Shown: in pieces, positions 42,404-62,274 of the stretch
Layout: each line of letters begins with the position of its first letter
Numbering within the stretch: position 1 is the stretch's first letter
Origin: Marsupella aquatica
Taxonomy: Eukaryota; Plantae; Marchantiophyta
Direction: 5' to 3'
DNA length: 64,000 nucleotides
NCBI GenBank assembly: GCA_973895155.1
Contig: OZ316896.1
Location: 6,190,166 to 6,254,165 of the forward strand
Notes under the pieces: generated by a model
Database searches by the model: none
The model's input: the letters and a program-made list of their open reading frames with translations, nothing else
What the model was told of the DNA's origin: nothing
Position numbers and translations under genes: made by a program

Positions 42404-43998
42404 TCAAAACAGCAAGTCACACAGACAGCAGCAGCATAACGCCGCCAGGCTGCACACATCCAAACAACGAGTTAATAGCATTCTAACAGAGAATTTTCAG
42501 CACACATACCTGAGAATTGTTTATCCCAACCTGAAGCTGATGGGCCCGACGCGGAAGCAGTACACAAGAAACTATTTACAAACATCTTAGCGACTTTCAA
42601 TTAGGATTTCTACAAACAACCCTTCTGAGGCTTCGGAAGTCCACCAAGTCAGATCCGAATGAAAATCTACAAAGCAGACTTAGACTTCACCAGAATCTAT
42701 CCTCCTCGTCGAAACTAGCGTGTCGAGATACTCTGGTCGCCGTTCAAGATCAAAGGGAGCACAAACATACATCGTTCTATCAGAGGTCTCTCTAGGTGGG
42801 ACTCTCAACTACCGTCAAGCGAGGTCCGAAATAAACGAATTCGAGCACTTATCAGTCAAATCGAAAGGAAGCCCTCAGTACAACAACGTCCAAGTCACAA
42901 CGACAAACGGTTGGCTAGGAGTCCGGCCGAGCTCCTAAGCAGCAATGAACCGCAAATTAGGACTGAGGGAAACATCTCACTAGACACTCAGTTTTGGTTC
43001 ACTGCATCCGGAGCACCTGGAAAGGGCTTCCGCTAGACCAAGGAGAAATTACTCACCATCCTTCAACAAGTGAAGGCCCACCGCGCTGCTGCTGTTGCTG
43101 ATATTGTGGTTGAGGGGCGTACATGCCCTGTTGAGGAGGATAACCTTGCTGAGGATAACCTTGCTGAGGAGGACCCTGCTGATGATAACCCTGAGGAGGG
43201 TAGCCCTGGGGAGGATATTCCTGTGAAGGATAACCCTGAGGAGGGTAACCTTGTGGAGGATATCCACCACCTGCAGTGGCAACAAGAGAAATCTCATTAG
43301 TAAAACTTATTGGACCACATACTACGATTCGCAAGATCAACGGGAGAATTATTCCGCGTGCCTTCAGGAAACAATCGTCTACTTGCTTAGTTGCGCACGG
43401 GTAACAGGACTCGGGAGGCGTAGCACTAGAAAGTTTTCCACACGGCAAGAGAGGTGCAGATCCACGAAGCCCATCGCTCGGTCGCAAATCAGGAAATGAC
43501 ATAGAGAATGTAAGGTCGCTGGCAGTGTATCCAAGCGCACTAGATACCTACGGGCTATCTTCTTCAGGACCACAACGGATCTTCGTAATGATCACAACTC
43601 CTCAACATTGCTTCAAATATAAAAAGTCACGGATGATGCCCTCACGATCTAACTAACTCCAACTTAACAGATGGAGAAGCCAACGGCGGCTAAGAGGGTG
43701 AAACGTAAACAGGGCTGTCGTCTGTTCCGTCATCGACAAATCCCCCTCTAGAATAACCACCACTATGAGAATCAAGTCAATTTTAAAAAAGAGGGTTGAC
43801 CACATTGTTTTCCGTAGCCTAGCGTAGGTCTTAGAAAGAAAGCATCTAAAAACATTTTAGTTCTCCATTACTCTCGAGTAGACAGAACAGCTGCAAAAGT
43901 TGGAGTCTAAGTCTAAATGAACATCGACCAAACTCACCTCCATAGCCTTGCGGAGGCGGAACTCCAACGGGCGGCTTGCCGTCACCGTAGGAACCCAT
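42404..43998 (-). CDS. CYSTM-family small protein (Pro/Gln/Gly/Tyr repeats plus Cys-rich tail anchor), 106 aa
   Basis: Exons 43998-43938, 43270-43057 and 42449-42404, with phases 1 and 2 consistent. Protein: MGSYGDGKPPVGVPPPQGYGGGGYPPQGYPPQGY...GPSLVEGCLAALCCCCLCDLLF*. Confidence 0.93.
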
Positions 43999-49224: not shown

Positions 49225-50480
49225 TCCCGCCTTATTCAAAATGTAATGTAATGTGATGTAGTGTTAAGTGTAAGCAGTGTCAACTAGTGTGACCTAAATT
49301 ACTCGGTTGAATGAGGTCGTTCGTAAGGTTAGTCACATTCGATGAAGGAAGTGTCGAAGAAGAAGGAGCAGTAGTTGTTGCGAGGGAAAAAGGAACTTTG
49401 TGAGGTTCATCGATTAGGGAAAAGCGGACTAGGGGAGCAAAGGTTGAGTGGAGGATCTGCGTCAAAGATCGATGGGCGCAGTGTGGGATTGTTGTGTAAC
49501 CATATACTCGGGTCCAGTAATATTTCCATTCGCGCCCCTATGGATGTTTGTATGAACTGGTGACTCTGCATCTGCGTACACTACAACATATTTTGCCCTT
49601 TTGCGAAGCTCATTTGAGTCCAAACACACGTTTGCGATTCCAGATGCTTCAAACCGTTGATGACTCAATACGCATCGCAATTTGCGATACTTGTGGTATC
49701 GCAACTTTGGTCTTCCATGCGATTTGCATCGCAAACATTTTGCGAACTTTATTGTATCACAATAGTTTGCGAAACTACAGAGATTACAAAACACATTACG
49801 AAGGCTCCGCGACCGCTCCGAAAGTCCGAAACCACGGTAACATTAATGATGCAAAACAATTAGTATTGGAGGATGTTTGCGAAAAGGTTAGCTTCAAACA
49901 ATTTGCGATGGGTTTGTATGGCAAATGTGCGAAACGATGTGGATGGTAAAGGTGGGATGGTCTGGATATCGCAAAATAGTGAAGCGTATAGTATGGAATA
50001 ATTGAGAAACGGTTTAAATGGCAGAATTGCGATTTGGTTGGGATTTGTTTAGTTTCGCAAATAGTTCGCAAACGTTTATGTTAGACTTGTGTGTGCATCT
50101 AGGTTAGAGTTTGAATGGGGGAGGAGGAGGGAGGGAGGTGAAAGGTGAAAGAGGGAGGAAGGGAGTTGGAAGGTGGATGAGGGACGGAGAAAGAAGGGAG
50201 TCCAAAGAGGGTTTACTAAAAATAGGAGAGACTTTAGCGAAGAGGGAGGGAGGAGAAAAAGCTATGGAGTTTTTGGAAGAGGAAGGAGAGTTTGGGTTCA
50301 AAGAGCCCGGAGGAGGGATAAGGGAGGGAGTACCCATGTCACTTATATGCATGACCTCTTTTGAAAGTAGGAGTCCAAAATGAAAATACCTACCACACTA
50401 ATGGTGTATGAAATATTAATTAAGAAACAACATGAACAATCCATGATATAGATTTTGGTTTAAATATCCATAAGTGTCTC

Positions 50481-53400
50481 TCACACTTGGTCACCTTCAA
50501 TGTCCTCTACATCTGACACAAAAATAGTGTCTGGCTTGTCTGAAACAATGGAACGAGACCGTGGCACATATGTGATGACAAGTGACCACTCTGGGTCTAA
50601 GGGGTATGGAACGTAGAAACATTGCTCCAAGTGAGATGGGAAAGTAAATGGCTCTGACGTTTGCCAATGAGATGCTTGAAAACTAGTGGCACTTGTCCTC
50701 AACCGTGTAAACCCACTCTCATCTTGGAGTACAGTGCGATTATTACCAACAAGGTTCACTTTGAACCACTTGCACTTGAAGACATACTCCTCAAACTTAG
50801 ATTGGTTGTCATATGAGACCACCAAAATCTCCTCTATCTTCCCATAGTGTGGCACAACATCACGAACAATGTTCCTGTCATGTCGGCTACTCCGGGAGTC
50901 CTGACAAAACTGCCCTTGAACTCCACAATCAAAAGTACGAGCCCTCTTCTCATCAAGGGAAGAAATCCTGAAATTAACAAGACCCATATATTGTTACTAC
51001 TACACAAAAAACACTAATCATGTTATGAGGAACCTTTCATACCAAAAGAGAAAAACACACTTATCTTAAGTAAAATGATTACTATATCTTAAGTAGTAGT
51101 ACATGAATATGGAAAACAAGGTTATGAACTAGTGAAACCTGAAGTGTCTCCCTTGGGTCCACATGGCCGTCTTGGATGTTACCACTCTCAAAGGGCCATG
51201 AACAATGGTCCGAATGTCATTTGTCATAGTAGGAAACTGTGAGACATCTCCTCCTTGTGCCAAAATGCCATCCAACTCAACCAACTTTTCCTTCATAAAC
51301 TCATGCAACTTAGGAAAAATCCTTGCCCTTTGACTCATTCTTTTGGCATTGTCATAAAACTCCCTCCATTCATCCATGACATTGTTATTACTCAACATGA
51401 ATGTATTCAACTGTGTCCACTCTGTTGATGTAAGCATGCGTGTTTTTGTTGCTCCTGTTAAACGGTCCTCCTCCTCTTGCCTCTCCTCCATCCAAGTACG
51501 TGGTAAAGTCCGATCAATGGTGGCCAAGATGTTACTACAATAAAACATGCTCTCTACAGCCAAGTATCCTGTAGCTATGCTTCCCTCCACTCGTGCACAG
51601 TTACGTACATAAGCCTTCAAGACTGACATGTAACGCTCAAGCCAGTACATCCATCGACAATGAACTGGACCAGCAATGGCAACCTCCCTCACAAGATGCA
51701 CAAGTAAATGAACCTGACAATCAAAGAAGGAAGGAGGGAGGGCCTTCTCCAACTTGCAAACCACCTCAGCAGCCAATACCTCCATTCCAGGAATCTCTTC
51801 CACATATATCTCCTTTGAGCATATCCATCTCAACAAACGACCCAATGACCAAATGGCATCTTGCACTTCTTTGGTCCCCAACCCTATAATTGCCACTGGC
51901 AATATATGCTGCAATAAGCGGTGATAGTCATGTGTCTTGAGATACCGTGGCCATTTGTGATTGTCCTCCATCCCAAAAGCTTTCCTCAAATTGGCACCAT
52001 AGCCTATAGGAAACCGCATCTCCCCTATACGATTCCAGAATTCACGTCTTTGGCCAACACTAAGCACCCAAGGAGCAGAAGGATGATGTTCCAAACCTGT
52101 GGCAGGATCAACTTGTACCCATACATCTGGATGCATTTCCAACTCTTCACATGCCTCCCTGAAGTTAGTGTCCTTCTCCCCATAAAAATGAGCTATCAAC
52201 GCCTTCCCCACATTTCCCTCTATGTGCATGGGGTCTAAAAGATGGCGGATCTTCAACTCTGACCAATAGGGCAAACTGGCTAGTATACTCCACCTCGTCA
52301 ACCCAATACCATCAAAGGTGAGGGGATCATCAGGGTCTGCCACCCTATCAGCTAGTGACTTCCAATGCCCAAAAGTTGTTGGTTCCGGAATTTCCCGCAT
52401 ATCACCAAGGGGCATGTCAAAGGAGGAAAATAAAAGTGGGTCAGACCTCATCTCATGCCCCATCGGAAGAAACTTTGTATGCCCAATGTAAACAATCTTC
52501 CTAAGCCATGGGGACCAAATTGCCATATCTTGCAATTGTGGACCACAGGTGGAGCAAGCTTTGTACCCCTGAGTTTGCAATCCAGAGACAAAGCCAAACC
52601 CTAGTTACACCAAAAATAAAACCAGACTAAATGTTAGGGTTGTCACATGACAAACAAGTATATTAAAGAGCATATCAAAGAAGGGTGGCATATGGTCAAA
52701 AAGTCATCTTACCAGGATAGTCATGCATTGTCCAACAAACTACCCCTCTCAGTTTAAATACACGTGGAATGCCTCCTGTATTTTTCCTGCCATCATATGC
52801 CCACACTCCACCCCACAGTTTTTGGAGTTCTCCAATCAATAGTGCCAAAATAAGTGTCAAAGTTCTTCACCTTTTTTGGACCTGGAATAATCAAAGACAG
52901 CAAGAGGAACCCCTTCTTCATGGATAGCCATGGTGGAAGGTTGTAATTCATCACAACCACAAGCCAAACTGATGTAGGTCTTCCCTTGCCTCCAAGGGCA
53001 TGAGGACTAACCCCATCAGATGCCAATCCCAACCTCACATGACGAGGATCATGTGCAAAGTCTGGCCATGTTTCCTCAATATGTTTGACTACAGGAGAGT
53101 CAATTGGCAACCGCATAACACCAGGCTCTGATCGATGAGTCTTATGCCATACCATCAACTCTGCCAAATCAGAACACCTGTACATGTGCAACAACCGAGG
53201 AATGATGGGAAACCAACGAACAGCTTTTCTTGGCACCTTCTTTGTAATCATGTTGGGGTCATACCGTGGCTCATGACATTCAGTACACTGTGTCTTCTTC
53301 TCATCGGCCCCATGAAATAACATGCAATCATTCACACATGCATGAATGATATGATATTCCATGCCAATTGATGAGAGAACACGCTTGGCCTCCTTCCAAG

Positions 53401-55193
53401 TTCCTGGCAACACATTGCCAGAAGGTAACATAAGGTCATGGCAAAGTGCAAACATATCAGATAACAAGGCATTGCTTGCCTTGTGTTTGGCCTGTAGATT
53501 CATCAACCCCAAGATAGCAGAAAGATGACTCAAACGAGCACCCTCATAGATAGGAGTTCGGGCATGTTCCTCTACTTCCTCCCATTGGCGCTGTCCCTCG
53601 GGGGTATGTCTTGGTCGTGGATCATTGGGGGGCACATGACCTCCTTGATCAGCAGACACCTCAGCATCATCTCCAGGGACGTCAACACCAAACCAATCAA
53701 CCATAAAATCATCCATGGCTCTATCTTGGTCATCAATAACCTGTTCATATGTTCTGGGTACATTGCGATCAGGGTTGTTGCTTCCACTGTCACTTGATGA
53801 GGAATGTGACTCAGAGCCTTGTCCTTCTTCTGGCATACCCATTTCCCGATATGCTGCTCTCAATCTCCGCGGTAACATATTTTGAGAGGGTCGCACATTC
53901 TAAAAACAATGCAAACAATTGAAAGTTACAAAGCAAATAGTTACAACATGTAGAAGAATATATGGGGGTGTGCAAACATGAAATAATATCGGTACTGGTG
54001 TAAATACAAAATGTGGCCAAACGCCATGTGTATGGTCATTTTCTAATCCCACACATAGTGAGTAAACAACTCATCACCTGAGTGAATGGTCCTAGTAGCT
54101 ACAACCAGACAATGGTCATGATGATATGTTTGGCCATAAGGGGCTGGTGGAGGACCCTCAATGAAAACCCACTCACAATTTTGCCTACACTTGGGGCGAG
54201 TCCCCACAGTACTGTTTATGAAACCAACTATATTCTCAGTTCGTATGGGGTCCCCATCTATCACCCGTTGCTCACTATACCTCCTAGTGTTTCCATCAAA
54301 AGTATCTAACTCCAAGGTATAAGTCTTCCACTCAGGATGTTGTGCAAGGATCATGTTCCAATGTCTTCTCTTGTAGATGGGTCCACCATAAGGAAACAAC
54401 GTAGGTCCTTCTCGACCGCGTCCACCACTACCACTCTCGGTATCCACAATGATGTCTTCACAAGCAAAAACTCCATAGCCATGTCTATCCCCAAGTGTGG
54501 AAGGTTTGATAACCCAACGTCTTCCCCAAACCTCTACCTCCTCACCATAGGAAAGCTCTTGTGGCAAACCAAGAGTCTGGGGATCCCAGTCCTTGATGAT
54601 AGGAACACATCTGCCAGTAAACTCACAATCACCCCACCTACCGGTAACCACTGCCTTGTACAAATCAGTATCCCCTCGGGGCCGTCTCTTGGAACGCTTT
54701 CTCCCTCTTGGGACAACAGGCTCACCCCCAACTGCCCTAGGACTGGAGGGGGCTGTTGCTAGACCCAAGGCTTGTGAGAATGCATTGCCTATAGCATCTA
54801 GAACACCTTGTGATGGGACATAAGGTGCTGATGCCGCAGGTCTAGGCCTACTAGATACCTATTCCACCCAAACCAAAACAAACAACAAGAGGTGTGAAAT
54901 TAAAACCCTTCACCATTGCGATGTGGAAATAGGGTAGAAACTAAGGCGTAAACACTTACCACATGGGATGAGGAAGCCCCTGTTGTATGACGTCCGTAAC
55001 GTCCATATCTCTCAATATGCTGGGTGCATATATAGGACTTTTGGGAAACCTGACCCACGCATTTGGCACATTGGCAAAGCTGACGGGGTGGACCACGAGG
55101 AGGAGGTGCAGTCGTGTGAGGTTGAGGAGGAGGTGGTATATCTTCATCGGAGGAGGAAGAATCTGTGGTGGAGATCTCAGAAGATGAAGACAT
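50481..55193 (-). pseudogene. CACTA transposase (TnpD/Tnp2 family), about 1120 aa if repaired; one frameshift
   Basis: Exons 55193-54960, 53899-52713, 52600-51139, 50967-50481. Motifs: IHACVNDCMLF...CTECHEPRY, WFPIIPRL, LGLASDG, NYNLPPW, HDYPG, GYKACSTC, LDPMHIEGN, LKTHDYH, FFDCQVHLLVHL, GPVHCRWMYWLER, YGKIEEI...FKCKWF. One extra base at ~52847-52850 breaks the frame, and removing it makes all exon phases consistent. Confidence 0.92.
54043..55193 (-). CDS. Transposon-encoded SET-domain protein, 349 aa: shared exon 55193-54960 spliced to exon 54858-54043
   Basis: Uninterrupted frame. SET-like motifs in canonical order: VIKPSTLGDRHGYGVFACEDI, LFPYGGPI, YTLEL, VIDGD, NIVGFINST...NC, LVVATRTIHSGDELFTHY. 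Phase-0 donor GTAAGT at 54959 and phase-0 acceptor TAG at 54861-54859. Confidence 0.8.
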
Positions 55194-56562
55194 TGCCCCT
55201 ACAAAGATGTATAATTTGCAAGTTAGGGGTTATTACCAAATAACATCACAATATCAAGCTGGACAAATGTAAGTTCTCAAGTAATGATGACATGAAACCA
55301 AACACAAAAGGAACACTAAAAAATACCTTTCTGAGACCCAGGCTCAGCGGTGCCAATAGGTCTTGTGGCTCTAAAACAATGAACCGAATCTGGAAGTATG
55401 AGAAAAGCTGCAAGTACACAAAGCGAACACCTTACATACATGTCCTCTTTATAGATAGTGGGAACCAAAAATTTTAATTACATGAATAAGCCTAACTAGA
55501 CCCATCTATTTTAGTCCGTACCTCCAGATGCCCGGGCTCTCACGATGCATACGCATTAGCTAGTATCAATTCATGCAAAAGTGCCGCACCCTGCAAGTTG
55601 TCATAGCTCCGCCTCCTTTGTTAGCATAAAACCCATGGAAAAACCATTAAAACCCAAAAGATCCATAAAACCCATTAAAACCCATAAAACCCATGGTAAA
55701 ACAACTAAAACATTAATCTCATCTAACCTTGCTTTGCCTTTTCCAAACCCTCACCCCCAAACCTCTGACCTATTACAAAAACCTAGACCCTCACTCCCAA
55801 TCCCCTTCGGACTCTCTTTTGTTTTAAACCCTAAACCCTTGCTTGAACCCTAAAAGCCTACAACCATAAATGCAAACCCTGCTTAAACCCAAAATTAAAG
55901 ACTTAAACCCTAAACCCAAACCCAACTTTAATCCTAAACCCTTTCCTCACTTATTAATTTTAAACCAAAACCCAACTCTTATCAAAATTAGCCTACACCC
56001 ACACCATGTATAGCTTAAAAAATGGAAGGTTTGACTGGTAATCTCGCTTTTAACCCCTAAAAAAACCAGCTTCATCCAAGACCCAACCCTAACAAACGCC
56101 GGGATTTGAAACGGCGGAATTTCTTAATTACACAAAAGGGCATAGTATAACTTACATGGCCTAAACAAAAGGAGGAGGGAAAGAATGTGAAATTTTTTTT
56201 TGCCAGGAATTGCCACGATATTGAGAACCAACCTGCTTCGCAACCTGCTTCAGAATTTGGTCACATTATTTGCGAAGCAAAATGTTTCGCAACAGCTTCA
56301 GAAAAATAGAGCCCGAGAGCATTTTTTCGCGTCTCTGCAGCTTTGCAAAGGCTTTGCGAAGCGTGTGGTTTCGCATTGGTTTTGGAAAGTTGAGATACTA
56401 GTTGCGAAGCGGGCTGATTCGCAAATTGCGATGCGGACTGCGTCGCAAATGTGTTTTGTCTGGGCATTCGGACCTTCCCGTCGGGTTACGAGGCCCATTC
56501 GACGTTTTTTGAAGTGAGGGAGGGCAAGAGGAGAGCTTGCGCGCGCTTGGTATTGGATAGCT

Positions 56563-58673
56563 ATGGATTCTAGTGGAGGGCATGGAGGGGATGGGGCAGG
56601 GGCAAGTGGGAGTGGGAGTGGCAATAGCAATGGAGGGAACAGGAATGAGGAGAGTAATCAATGGACGAATTTGATGGCCGAGCATCTCAATGCCACACAG
56701 CTTAGCCATTTGGATTTGAGTACACCAGCTGGGATTGCTTCTTTGAGTGCAATTCTAGGGCAAGCTTTGCAAACCGGGGTTGCAGCAGGGCAGGCTCAGA
56801 GGGAGAAAGAGGCAAAGGCTGCAGCTGAGGAGAAGGCCAGAGAGAAGAAACGAAAGAAGGAGGAGAGGGCTAAGGCAGGAGTACTCTCTCCTGCAGCCCT
56901 CGAAAAGAAGAGGAGAAGGGAGGAACGAGATGAGATTCGAGCACAACGTGAGGCGCAGCGGAAAAAGGAGGAAGAGAGGAAGAAGCTGCCATTGATTGCC
57001 TTGGTTGAGGGCATTCCTACTGAGTTGGCCTACACTGGGGCAAAGAGCATTATCAGGCTTGTTGTGAGGACTAGCTTTGCACGAGGTGTTGAGTGGGGGA
57101 AACTAAGCAGAGCAGAGCAGAGGAAAGTAATGACTCAGGTCAAAGATTCATTCAGAAATGGAGCAGAGATTGATGACCAGTGGCTTGCAGATAGAATTTT
57201 GAATTCAATGTCTCAAGCACGATACCATGATAGGAGGAAGGTGAGGGCCTACCTGGCAAGCTTGCAGGAGTACAGGAACGTGAGGAGGCCAATGCAATTC
57301 ACAGAGGATGTGTGGAACGCGTTCTATAAGGTCGAGGTGCAGCTGAAAGCAGCCAAGGACCTCCAATTCTGGAAGGAGAAGGAGGCCAAGGCACTTCAGG
57401 CCGGGAAGTCAGACAAAGACCTCAAGGCATTGGCTGAGAAGGTCTCTCAGCTGCAGCACATCGTGGATGAAGTGGGGACACCACCCTAGAAGTTCATCCT
57501 TGCAGCAGACCGAGTCAGCAAACGCCCCAAGACCACACACAAGATGGGGCAAGGTGGACTTCCCGGCCTGAAAGCAACCTTCGTGAGTCCTCTCCCCTCC
57601 TCCCCTGCTTCTTTTCCTTCGCCTTCAATTGTTGTTTGCTTGCCTGCAATGCCCCTCGCAGACCTCTGCTTTACCCCTTATGGCCTCCCCTTTCGTTTTA
57701 GGTCACCCTGACACATTGCGTGCCTTAGCCATTTCTCGGATTTTTTTAAAAGCACAGTTTGCGAAACAATTGCGAAGCGGGTTGCCTCGCAATTGTTTTG
57801 CAAACTCTATTATAACCTTTTTCCCGTAAGGTTTGCGAAGCCATTGCGAAGCAATCCGATTCGCAATCTATTTCGCAAACTTAAATATATTTGAATTTGC
57901 AAAGGTGGGAGTTTTGCAAAGCTTGTTTCATTTTGAAAAACATTTAGTGTCGAGTGACAAATGTTTGTTAGGGTAATGGGGTTTTTTTCTGGTTAGGGTA
58001 CCCTTTTTACCCTTTTTAGGATTCCTTTTTTGCTTAAGTACCCTTAGTTACTAACCCGGGCCCCTTATGTTTTGGTGTTTCATTTTTTTGTGGTAGTATA
58101 AGAGGTACCGCCGCAAGATAACAACAAAGGAGATGGAGATAGGGGCAGAGCATGGGGCCAGACATCTCTTTGAGTTGGTTGATGAAGAGTTGGCTAGTGT
58201 GAGTGATTTGTAGTACCCTTTCTAAACCCGCACCCATTCCATTTATAAGGTTTATACATTTTTCCTATTAACCCTAAACCCGAATTAACCTTGTGACATG
58301 GAAGCAGGATAAGGAGGAGCAGGAGGGGAGTGAGGATAGCAGTGAGGAGGATAGCGGCGCTGATGATGGGGACACTACCGGGGCCACCACGAGTGGGTCC
58401 AGAGGGGCAGGGAGTGCTGCCACACCTAGCACACCAGGAGACCAGGAGGATGATGATGAGGATGATGACGATGATGAGGATGAGCCAGATGGGGAGGAGC
58501 AGCAGGCACCACCACCACCACCCCCTCCCGTCCAGCTCGTCCCGCCCAAAGCAAGAAGGACAAGGGGAAGAGGCCAGCAAAGAGGAGTAGGCGGGCTCCA
58601 TTCTAGAGGATGCAGATGTAGTTCACTCCATATGGCATATGGATTAGTCAAAGGACAGTGTCTTGGTATTTGA
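56563..58673 (+). pseudogene. Second CACTA ORF (TnpA/Ptta-like accessory protein) with a premature stop, divergent from the transposase
   Basis: Exons 56563-57582, 58097-58198 and 58308-58673, all phase 0. Charged coiled coil, then RPMQFTEDVWNAF. The frame continues past TAG 57487-57489 through KFILAADRVSKRPKTTHKMGQGG to a GTGAGT donor. Acidic/Pro-rich tail. The family assignment is by resemblance only. Confidence 0.65.
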
Positions 58674-60398
58674 TACCCCATAGGGTTTTAGAAAACCCTA
58701 ATTTTTGTACATTCAGGGATTTTTGGCATATATAAAGTTTTGCTTTGGTATCTTCATGTGGAGCAATAAGACCCCAACCCAATTATGAACCCAAATATAC
58801 AAAACCCAGCCCTCAAACTATCCTTGTGAAACACATGCGAACGCCATACTATCACAAACTTGCCATACATTGAGTATTGGAACATTGCGATACTTTTGGT
58901 TCCGCAATTGTGCGACACCCTGACTGACACAGTTATGCGATACCATATGAATGGCAACAGAATTGTCAAGACAACAGCTTCGCAAATAAGTTATAGTTCA
59001 GAGCGCGTCGCAAACCGATAAAGAGTCTGTCGAGATCGCATAAATGTGATTTATGTGCGATAAAATAAGTTTCGCAGTGTGCGAAGGGGTTGCGAAAGTC
59101 CGATTGCGAAGCTGTGGGTTTCAAAGAATGCAAAAGGGTTGCGATGCGGAATTTCATAATTTGGTCCTTTGTTAGTTGCGATGGGACGGGGTTCGCAAAA
59201 GGGGTCGGTAGTGTTGTAGTGGTAAGGGCCTGCTGCAGCTGATCGCGTTGATGCTTTGTTGTTGTAAACATACGCTTCAGATTTGCTATTGCTTGTCTTC
59301 GAATTTGCCATGCTCTGGTGGATGTCAATTTCAGTAGTGCTGCTTTGATCCAATTGGCAGAGTGTATGTCTATAGTGTGTTTCTTTCTCTCGTCTTTTCT
59401 CAGGTTTATTGAGGTCCGTTTCCTTCTCTGACGGTGTTGTGATGTGCTCCGGAACTGATCCATGGGGGGAGGATCCGTTTTCCAGTGCAGTAAGGGCGTA
59501 TATGCGGTGTAGTTGATCTGGGGCCGTAAGCTTGAAGTTCTAAGGAATGGGATGGAATCGTTGTCCCTCAACGCCATTGCTGGCTTGCGCTCGTGTTTGT
59601 CTTGATCAGGTTAATCGCTCACTGGTTTTGCTTGTTGCAGTTGAGTGTAAAACAGCTTTGTAGACTCACTACGATTTGTTGTTGTTGTTGTTGTTGTTGG
59701 CTCCAAAAATAGTTGATTTGACAATGGGTAGCCTCTCCATAACGTCAACTATTGAAGCTACTAGAGCACCTAGTGCTTGAGGCAGGTAGTAGTTGGTGTG
59801 CATACTTAGTGGCATAGAGGTTTGTGGAGTTCCTGACTCTCCATTTGAAACAGGCGTGAAGCTAATTTTGGTATTTGGAGGGCGTAGTGTTGCACCTCAG
59901 TAGAATCGTAGGTGTCCATTTTGAATTGGACATTTTGAATTGGACATTTTGGGCCGACAATCCTTACTTTTTTCTTTGCAGTGTTTTCAGTGAGGTTCTA
60001 CAAAATCTTGCAGTGTAGGCAGTTGCGTTTTTTTGCGCTGTACTCAATGGTGTTTGTGCCACTAGCATAATGAAATGGTTTTCAGTGTTCCTGGACTTGA
60101 AGTGGCAAGGTCGGGGTATCGTCCGTGATTTTGTGGAGGAATGGCATTTCAGACTTGTAAATTTGATGCACTCTGTACTCGCGTTTAGAAGGTTACGCAT
60201 TACTAGCTAGGCTCATGGATAAAACTCCTTGTAACAAACAAATAATTGATGAATGCCCCTATTTTGCCTACTAGAACATGGAGACAAATACAGAACATAG
60301 CTGATATTAACAACCAAAGCATGAACATTTTTATTGGGCAAAATGTGTGTGCAAGGCACACAATACATGTATGCAACGCGCGTTTTAATGTGCTTCAC

Positions 60399-62274
60399 CT
60401 ATGGGCTAACCGAATCAGGGACATACGAAGTCCATGAATCTATAATATTCATCATTTCCTTGAAATGTTGTGGAGACCGGTTTTGCTTAAGAACTTCTGT
60501 GAGCAGCACAGTGGCTTGTTGAGCTTTGTTAATAGCGAGTTGATGTTTGAGCTCGGTTCTAGCCCTCTTATCTTCTTGCCTACGCTGCTGGGGGGGGTCA
60601 CTTCCATGGAAGTGGCACATCACGTGCGACGAAGTATAGGTCCATTTAAATGGGTGTGGCGGAAGACTTCCAAAGTTTGGTGGAAGAACACATAGGGCAT
60701 GTTTTATTGGCTGGTCTACTTTAAAGAACACATAGGCCTCTTTAATTGTAAAAAATACTTTCTTTAAAGTTTTTAGGGGTTTTTTTAATAAAAAATGACA
60801 AAATTTAAAGAAAGAAAGGATTTTGCAAAAAAATATTTTTCACTTATAAGTTAGGGGGGTCAAACCCTAAAACGTTGCACGTGATGTATGGCCCTCCAAA
60901 TAGTGACCCCCCCGAGCTACGCTGAAGGCGTTCTCTTTTGTCCAGGTGTGCAGATTGGGCATCTTGAATGACCTTCTCTCTGAATGCATCTGCTAGTCTT
61001 GCTTCCTTCCTGTCAGCCAATTCTTGCGCTCTCCATCTATCCTTTGCATCAATCATTTGAATTCTGAAAGCATTCTTCTCTTCTAATTTCTCTACATACA
61101 CCTCAGCCAGATTGGGCCTAGATGTGCCTTGAGTTGATGATGGCCTCTTGCCCTGTTGTGGCTGTTGAGTACCTCGTTCTTGTGTCACTGTTGGGTGAGT
61201 TTGTGAATTACCTTCGCTTCAACCTTGAGAACGTGGAGCTGCTGCTGTCGGGAAAGATGCTGGAGCTGACGCGGGCTCTTCAATAGTGGGTATGCTTGAT
61301 TGAGGCTGGGATTGGGGCTCGGGTGCTGTTGGAGGCAGCGATTCATCAGCGGAGCTGTTTCCGCTAGTAGGAGGGCAATTTGTGCGATGGTCCTGGTCTA
61401 TATTAGTCTGGCCAAACTGAAATTCAGAGTCACCTGCATCAAAATGTCCTAATTAAGCACGCAATTTAACTATGTGTAGTGGTGTGGAGATTATAAATAC
61501 TACGCAATGCTATGAAGTAACCTCTGCCACAAATTCAAAAAATGTTGCATCAATAGTGCTGAGAGTACTCCGAGGCGTAATGACTTGCCTTACCAACTTC
61601 ATGGTAGATGGGGTCATTGCGGGGATCCTTTGGGAATGGGAATTGGGACTCCGGCACCTCATCTTTGTCAGAACCAACATCGATGTATAATTCTTGATGG
61701 CCAGGAAAACCAACAGCGATTGTGCTTGGAGGAGAAACGTTTGCTCTCTCCCCATAAATTGCGTGCATACGCTCAAAATGGGGGCAAATTTCTCATACTT
61801 CTCTGCTAAAGTAAGACCCTGTCTCAACTTAGCGTCTGTGAGCCCAGCACCAGAGTCCCACTTCATCGCCAATGCCACTTTATATTTCTTTAAGAAACGC
61901 TGGAACCTTTTGCCAAGGTTATCGCCTGTTGTGACGAACTTGGGAAACCCATTGTCATGCAAGTCAATCAACATCTTCTTAAAAATAGTCTTCTTGGGAG
62001 GATGCTTACCAGTGACAGATGGGCGACTACTAGTGCCCTTGAGCATAGCAAAGTTCTCAGGCACCTCCAACCAATCGACAATTATCACAAGGTGTTGTGG
62101 CAAGAGCTTCCTGTATCTCCGGCTAGACCCAGACCTGCAGCTTGCGAGACCATTTCAGTGTCGGATTTCGGGAAGCTGGGAATCAAGGATGACAACTTTA
62201 GCAGATGAGCACCGAGGATGATTTGGATCCTAAATCTGATTGTTCAATTGTGAAATGCCCTGTAAGATGTCCAT
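60399..62274 (-). pseudogene. Degenerate Myb/SANT-like DNA-binding ORF of PIF/Harbinger accessory-protein type
   Basis: IVDWLEVPENF...KKTIFKKMLIDLHDNG...KRFQRFLKKYK...DSGAGLTD...(frameshift)...HAIYGERANVSPP, then a coiled-coil C-terminus. Contains stops and frameshifts and is split by a MITE. A TIR pair was not confirmed. Confidence 0.6.
60588..60916. mobile_element. 329-bp MITE with 8-bp TSD (hAT-like)
   Basis: TIRs CTGGGGGGGGTCACT...ACATCACGTGCGACG and CGTTGCACGTGATGT...AGTGACCCCCCCGAG; perfect TSD CTACGCTG at 60580-60587 and 60917-60924. Confidence 0.9.

Follow-up and report, generated by a model that had tools for sequence, protein, structure and literature searches.

A SET-domain exon inside the transposase gene of a bryophyte CACTA element and its predicted place in a splice-site choice

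Introduction

The organisation of the CACTA transposase gene is well described: in the available part of PMC8978399, ORF1 carries TAD, Transposase_21, DUF4218 and DUF4216 in that order, with the TAD missing from some records. Alternative splicing into TnpA and TnpD, together with split-gene variants, is documented in the accessible portions of PMC13547354 and bioRxiv 10.64898/2026.08.24.746577, and SET genes have been described on transposons of several kinds, namely Plavaka PAG2, HarbingerS, MuDR and Helitrons (bioRxiv 10.1101/2025.02.11.637652; PMC12730594; both in their accessible parts). Each half of the arrangement that we propose here, TnpA/TnpD-like splicing and a SET domain on a transposon, hence has a precedent, and the combination was not found in the literature searched.

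The locus under study lies in a CACTA element of the liverwort Marsupella aquatica. Like En/Spm TnpA/TnpD in maize and like Arabidopsis EN/SPM3 and 7, as far as the available texts describe them, it would produce a transposase and a chromatin-related accessory protein from one CACTA unit by splicing. In En/Spm, however, TnpA is a transposase-derived DNA-binding factor, whereas here a captured SET fold would sit inside the transposase gene and share a coding exon with it, under a predicted pattern of splicing. An earlier note on this DNA had invoked En/Spm in proposing that splicing or polyadenylation toggles between transposase and methyltransferase. The layout, the sites and the phases behind that proposal are conserved, but the analogy itself is only loose, because the second product here is exon 1 plus SET and not a Transposase_24-type TnpA DNA-binding protein, and because a separate gene on the opposite strand may be the counterpart of TnpA.

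Plavaka PAG2 of red algae, in the EnSpm superfamily, is likewise a SET domain on a CACTA-superfamily element (bioRxiv 10.1101/2025.02.11.637652); the likeness is by description, and PAG2 differs in being an accessory gene in its own right, encoding a fusion with a DNA adenine methylase and lying on elements of 17-19 kb, with no transposase-shared exon described in the accessible text. In our element, no Pfam match to a DNA methylase was found in the 7 ORFs scanned. HarbingerS, the SET-bearing MuDR of Phytophthora and the SET-bearing Helitrons are similar as DNA transposons with a captured SET methyltransferase gene, but they belong to other superfamilies and hosts and, in the available parts of the sources that cite them, carry SET as an accessory gene (PMC12730594 and the Bostrychia preprint). 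The canonical CACTA ORF1, as given in the accessible text of PMC8978399, would have the same domains in the same order if our exon 1 joins the distal acceptor, and differs in that here the TAD-like part is cut off from the rest by a SET exon that is in frame and brings a stop of its own. The available portions of PMC4158355 and PMC11982613 hold nothing on a SET-in-transposase layout. In full-text searches of the open literature, with Repbase, subscription journals and bioRxiv supplements outside their scope, no SET exon placed inside the CACTA transposase gene of a land plant came up among the papers listed; a curated Repbase entry for such an element may exist.

Results

The CACTA element and the state of this copy

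The window, that is, the whole stretch of 64,000 nt of contig OZ316896.1 that was analysed, holds one complete CACTA element at 49579-59221 (9,643 bp), with the region of interest inside it and no second copy within the window (Table 1). Both ends (49579 and 59221) carry the terminal inverted repeat CACTACAAC, which starts with CACTA, and a 3-bp target-site duplication, GTA, lies on either side. Subterminal repeats of the type TTTGCGAA/TTCGCAAA (families D2, D4, D7 and D8) stand close to both ends. Contigs of runs X2, X3 and X4 contain the empty site, with 49575 joined to 59222 and 9646 nt skipped, the equivalent of the element plus one duplication; the insertion is therefore not fixed among those samples, and the CACTA family appears to have been recently mobile.

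Transposase_21, DUF4218 and DUF4216 are found on the minus strand over three predicted exons, all above the Pfam cut-off, with Transposase_21 in the frame that opens at 53899 (E 7.4e-25). One extra base near 52847-52849 shifts the transposase frame in this copy; it is absent from the contigs of three of the four runs, and the fourth run barely covers the site. The plus-strand ORF ends in a premature stop at position 57487 that is seen in this copy alone, all four runs having C there. The frameshift and this stop together indicate that the copy is damaged or mis-assembled. A search of Rfam returned 0 matches.

Table 1. Coordinates of the CACTA element and of its observed and predicted features in the window
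Feature	Position	Strand	Basis
Target-site duplication GTA, left	49576..49578	.	Empty-site joint 49575 to 59222
Terminal inverted repeat CACTACAAC, left	49579..49587	+	Sequence
Last transposase exon (DUF4216), predicted	50481..50967	-	Pfam
Transposase exon, predicted: end of Transposase_21, DUF4218, WLERY motif at 51644	51139..52600	-	
Transposase exon behind acceptor B: Transposase_21, GLASDG at 53029, MHDYP at 52728	52714..53899	-	
Spacer, 143 nt, AT-rich, ends in acceptor B; predicted to form the 3' UTR in the SET isoform and the last part of the long intron	53900..54042	-	
SET exon, 271 codons and stop: basic linker, beta/helical pre-SET part, SET domain	54043..54858	-	
Phase-0 intron, 101 nt, GTAAGT donor to acceptor A	54859..54959	-	
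Exon 1, ATG 55193: Ser/Asp/Pro-rich N-terminus, CxCxxC..H motif like Transpos_assoc	54960..55198	-	
5' UTR intron 2, predicted, GT..AG	55199..55326	-	
Upstream exon, 63 nt, conserved, likely non-coding	55327..55389	-	45/63 nt same as L001
5' UTR intron 1, predicted	55390..55521	-	
Divergent accessory ORF, without Pfam match above cut-off	56563..57489	+	
Terminal inverted repeat CACTACAAC, right	59213..59221	-	
Target-site duplication GTA, right	59222..59224	.	

One donor, two acceptors

We consider it likely that one transcript gives rise to two proteins through alternative 3' splice sites, either exon 1 plus SET or exon 1 plus transposase. The exon structure behind this reading had been outlined in the earlier note, and all its positions are confirmed. 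The first exon, 55193-54960 on the minus strand, has 234 nt and 78 codons, carries CQCAKC...CTQH and ends in a phase-0 GTAAGT donor. The AG of the proximal acceptor A ends at 54859, in phase 0, and the frame behind it is free of stops for 271 codons (54858-54046, stop at 54045-54043), while the AG of the distal acceptor B ends at 53900, again in phase 0, with the transposase frame open from 53899. The 5' UTR intron placed at 55326-55199 has GT..AG borders, and we found a further upstream intron at 55521-55390, giving two 5' UTR introns in total. The layout of a shared exon and two acceptors is supported, at the level of sequence, by three conserved splice sites, by their phase and by the TAD-like motif of exon 1.

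The conservation of these sites can be followed in L001, a metagenome contig that spans the whole unit and is the 1 locus obtained from 69 pattern matches. Identity between L001 and the window is 62-74% in exons, 54% in the SET linker and 43-54% in introns and spacer. Both UTR donors, the phase-0 exon-1 donor and acceptor A are kept, and an acceptor-B-like site is present; the earlier note had named lack of acceptor conservation among copies as grounds for giving up its model, and L001 has donor, acceptor A and B-like site in the same phases. Intron 1 measures 101 nt in the window versus 111 nt in L001, and the spacer 143 versus 219 nt. L001 ends six bases past a T-rich TAG, with AATATG there versus AATGTG after the TAG in the window. 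Such an acceptor-B-like site arose in 0.4-2% of 5000 doublet shuffles of the 225-nt tail of L001, depending on the pattern, the patterns having been picked after the match was seen and with only 6 exon bases available.

The sister contigs from the runs bear on the same boundary. A diverged X3 contig can be aligned over 53817-53902 and again over 54043-54120, the two parts being separated by 165 unrelated letters, and in the X2 and X4 contigs similarity also stops at 53902; in these sister contigs the alignable sequence breaks off precisely at the SET stop and at acceptor B. Eight of the 10 indel rows fall in the spacer, and the remaining 2, in the exon, cancel each other. Among the substitution rows listed (40 of 68), 26 lie in the transposase exon, 19 of them at third positions and 18 synonymous; only 1 of these 26 variants is upstream of 53878, and the third-position bias therefore confirms the frame and not the start of translation. 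The contigs of the four runs hold introns, flanks and empty sites, and their joints near 54827-54954, 55200-55324 and 55374-55525, considered as splicing, were instead read as diverged introns of a sister subfamily. Among the joints listed (15 of 30 in one set, 3 in another), none coincides exactly with 54960-54859 or 54960-53900, a result that speaks neither for nor against the two junctions.

What feeds the transposase frame

The likeness of exon 1 to the transposase-associated zinc-binding domain, suggested in the earlier note, appears weakly in some of its relatives but not in the exon itself. The window's exon 1 had no Pfam match at E<=1, whereas 4 of 14 aligned homologs match Transpos_assoc (PF13963) over positions 31-63, the CxCxxC..H part, at E 0.025-0.14; with 13-15 bits these matches are far under the Pfam cut-off of 27.7, and still this is the family most shared among the homologs. 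At E<=0.001 exon 1 has 17 homologous proteins, of which one is probably spurious; CxCxxCxG and a His are kept, and for most of them the end coincides with this donor position, down to an identity of 35%. The dN/dS of exon 1 against L001 is 0.27, and that of its motif half 0.11, values that for this single pair show selection on exon 1 as well. A search of the ESM Atlas with exon 1 gave no usable match, and a modelled exon-1 homodimer with Zn had a score of 0.00, with the alignment left out of use.

Behind acceptor B, the first 125 codons of the frame are free of Cys, and the frame gives no match to Transpos_assoc; since some exon-1 homologs do match this family weakly, the transposase likely needs exon 1. 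Transpos_assoc is present in 45% of the members of the Atlas cluster near this transposase. A weak search for long proteins (614-2000 aa) resembling the N-terminal part of the transposase found none.

Exon 1 is joined to the SET exon at the same point in Calypogeia and Sphagnum gene models, in a liverwort and a moss, and a direct join of exon 1 to the transposase was seen in 0 of the 48 proteins with the exon-1 pattern, which enter the SET exon or read through the intron; these 48 come from gene prediction or from raw ORFs and not from transcripts, and sources of that kind usually give one isoform. That every exon-1 gene model runs on into SET would also fit a different arrangement, in which acceptor B is fed by the UTR exon (donor 55326) and the transposase mRNA skips both exon 1 and SET to start at the ATG at 53878, with exon 1 serving SET only. 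This ATG, near which the earlier note had placed a transposase start that would speak against its model, does exist and is in frame downstream of acceptor B, the ATG of L001 is the second codon after its B-like acceptor, and the TAD is missing from some CACTA records (PMC8978399, accessible part). We nonetheless hold this arrangement, the main alternative, to be improbable: acceptor B is in phase 0, and in the window as in L001 the first codon behind it is Asn; the alignment with the sister contigs reaches 53902, which lies upstream of the ATG; the ATG of L001 corresponds to GTG in the window, which makes the start not conserved; and the transposase would be left without the TAD-like motif.

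The two acceptors of the favoured model differ in T content. Acceptor B, with 9 T in -16..-4, ranks 1st by T count of the 205 YAG sites on the element's minus strand, and acceptor A, with 4 T, is the weakest of the six predicted acceptors. The 143-nt spacer has three TGTA words in the window and in L001 alike (by eye), and AATAAA was found neither there nor after the transposase stop. The lack of a clear poly(A) signal in the spacer would suit a gene without acceptor choice, where SET and transposase are separate cistrons, on a dicistronic mRNA or with a second promoter in the SET exon or spacer, as would the split-gene EN/SPM families of Arabidopsis (PMC13547354, in its available portion). 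We regard separate cistrons as very improbable, for they leave unexplained why a conserved, top-ranked acceptor lies precisely where the transposase frame opens. Dicistronic TnpD mRNAs, as known in maize, count in their favour.

It could also be imagined that exon 1, most of SET and the transposase form a three-part fusion through an internal donor at 54176. A donor-like hexamer, GTGAGT, is indeed present there in the window, and one Sphagnum gene model (P0025) has such a form, but this model joins the transposase about 45 codons late and stops early. The donor at 54176 is in phase 1 against the phase 0 of acceptor B, the hexamer reads ATGAGT in L001, it arises through a Cys codon that 26 of the 33 homologs with that motif retain, and the conserved ELxxxY motif would be cut off. 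Such a fusion hardly seems credible to us.

Upstream of exon 1, the short exons at 55327-55389 and 55522-55560 (minus strand; about 270-495 in L001) are conserved like coding exons, the 63-nt one being 71% identical and without indels. A coding role for this exon was considered and set aside: in the window its frame runs on to join exon 1, but in L001 a stop interrupts it, and the 18 mismatches with L001 are without codon periodicity by hand count. Judging from this conservation, the two short exons are possibly a regulatory UTR element.

The SET exon and its predicted product

The SET profile PF00856 matches the exon with 27.3 bits against a cut-off of 22.4 (E 4.9e-6). Homologs number 42 at E<=0.001 among 1841 candidates, and the named ones have identities of 73% in Calypogeia fissa, 55-80% in several Sphagnum species and 41% in Riccia sorocarpa, a distribution in keeping with a bryophyte host. 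The dN/dS against L001 is 0.30 for the single pair, and by such comparison the SET exon is under purifying selection. Moss and liverwort copies are 60-73% identical, which either strong selection or horizontal transfer could explain. Searches elsewhere gave little: viral contigs had nothing for SET or for two transposase parts, nothing was found in plasmids, and the sole match in prokaryote genomes (L002, 36 aa, E 1e-3) was marginal and was disregarded. The PDB sequence searches returned no relevant match.

Most SET domains have NH in the SAM-binding motif; this NH(S) motif, the post-SET closure, and the GxG, YxG and ELxF/YDY-type motifs with a terminal Tyr are canonical. Among the 42 homologs, fragments included, GxG is found in 36, F(P/R)(Y/F)xG in 38, the N motif in 37 and ELxxxYxW in 32. 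The His after the motif Asn is replaced, 31 of 37 homologs having NS, and the predicted protein ends 3 residues past the terminal Tyr, with the post-SET cysteines absent. Some active SET/PR domains also do without the His or the post-SET cysteines. The cysteines of exon 1 were considered as a stand-in for the post-SET zinc site; the fourth ligand of that site is an NHSC-type Cys, and the idea was set aside because this position is mostly Thr/Ser here.

Structure models are of low confidence (pLDDT 54). With the SET model, Foldseek returned SET proteins in all 41 rows among those listed (best E 2.1e-3), and a wide fold search (VIA) placed the EZH2 SET domain at the top (Z 5.7, rmsd 4.4, 99 aligned), tied with SET8, Z values of 5-5.7 being weak alone. 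The fold matches tie among H3K4, H4K20, H3K9, H3K27 and H3K36 enzymes, and the substrate cannot be read from them. A basic linker stretch of the SET exon looks like a nuclear localisation signal. We predict, with moderate confidence, that the SET isoform is a nuclear lysine methyltransferase; that it acts as a writer of histone marks at the element's own copies, helping them to escape or reshape silencing, we offer as a tentative proposal.

The change from NH to NS and the absence of the post-SET region would equally suit an inactive product, a decoy or binding protein that has the shared N-terminus and dampens the transposase in the manner of a truncated repressor, a reading that is compatible with the splice model. 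A search of PDB sequences with the SET exon likewise found no solved SET chain at E<=1. Against this, GxG, YxG, the Asn and the terminal Tyr-x-Trp are near invariant down to 37% identity, as expected where SAM binding is kept, and we find an inactive decoy possible though rather doubtful.

Discussion

We suggest that the SET exon was captured into the first intron of the transposase gene. Transcription from a single promoter would then cover two short UTR exons followed by exon 1, and two outcomes would be open to the transcript. If the weak acceptor A nearby is used and a 3' end forms in the 143-nt spacer, the product would be a protein of 349 aa composed of exon 1 and SET. Use of the strong, far acceptor B would instead lose the SET exon within a 1,060-nt intron and yield the full transposase (TAD-like, Transposase_21, DUF4218, DUF4216). 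Were no 3' end to form in the spacer, a long spliced tail would remain on the SET mRNA. Alternative use of the acceptors would make the products mutually exclusive for each transcript, and the shared zinc-binding N-terminus may be an address for both proteins.

In its widest form, the proposal is that a histone methyltransferase serves as a mutually exclusive terminal exon in a moss-and-liverwort CACTA transposase gene, with a splice or polyadenylation switch between writing a permissive mark on the element's own copies and cutting and pasting them, and with a shared N-terminus that sends both proteins to the same site. This would amount to an enzymatic form of anti-silencing in place of the VANC/TnpA type; to our knowledge, the plant transposon anti-silencing factors VANC and TnpA bind DNA and have no known catalytic domain. 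The whole of this scenario is speculative and, we think, unlikely to hold in every part.

What we describe is a land-plant transposon with a candidate chromatin-writing enzyme, one maintained by selection in mosses as in liverworts and built into the transposase gene. If the splice model is true, the SET and transposase products compete for one exon. Two questions are raised by such an arrangement: can a transposon write its own histone marks, and does splice-site choice ration the transposase? There is also a consequence for annotation. Many Sphagnum gene models labelled 'SET domain-containing' are probably transposon genes, which affects counts of the SET family in bryophytes; the high-copy models P0004 (a cluster of 360 members), P0001 and P0042 are probably the exon of this transposon.

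On the plus strand, the element carries an accessory gene (56563-57489 and 58278-58673) with a coiled, charged N-terminal part and a helical C-terminal part, the latter of which we take to resemble TnpA-type DNA-binding regions. The accessory ORF is possibly a TnpA-like gene, and the assignment is putative. Clusters of subterminal repeats are also found internally, at 56220-56450 and 57756-57880, where they flank this ORF near predicted promoters. Outside the CACTA element, fragmented ORFs at 61510-62154 presumably resemble the Myb/SANT-like protein of Harbinger-type elements, and a purine-rich tandem repeat with a 15-nt unit and about 9 units lies at 43132-43275.
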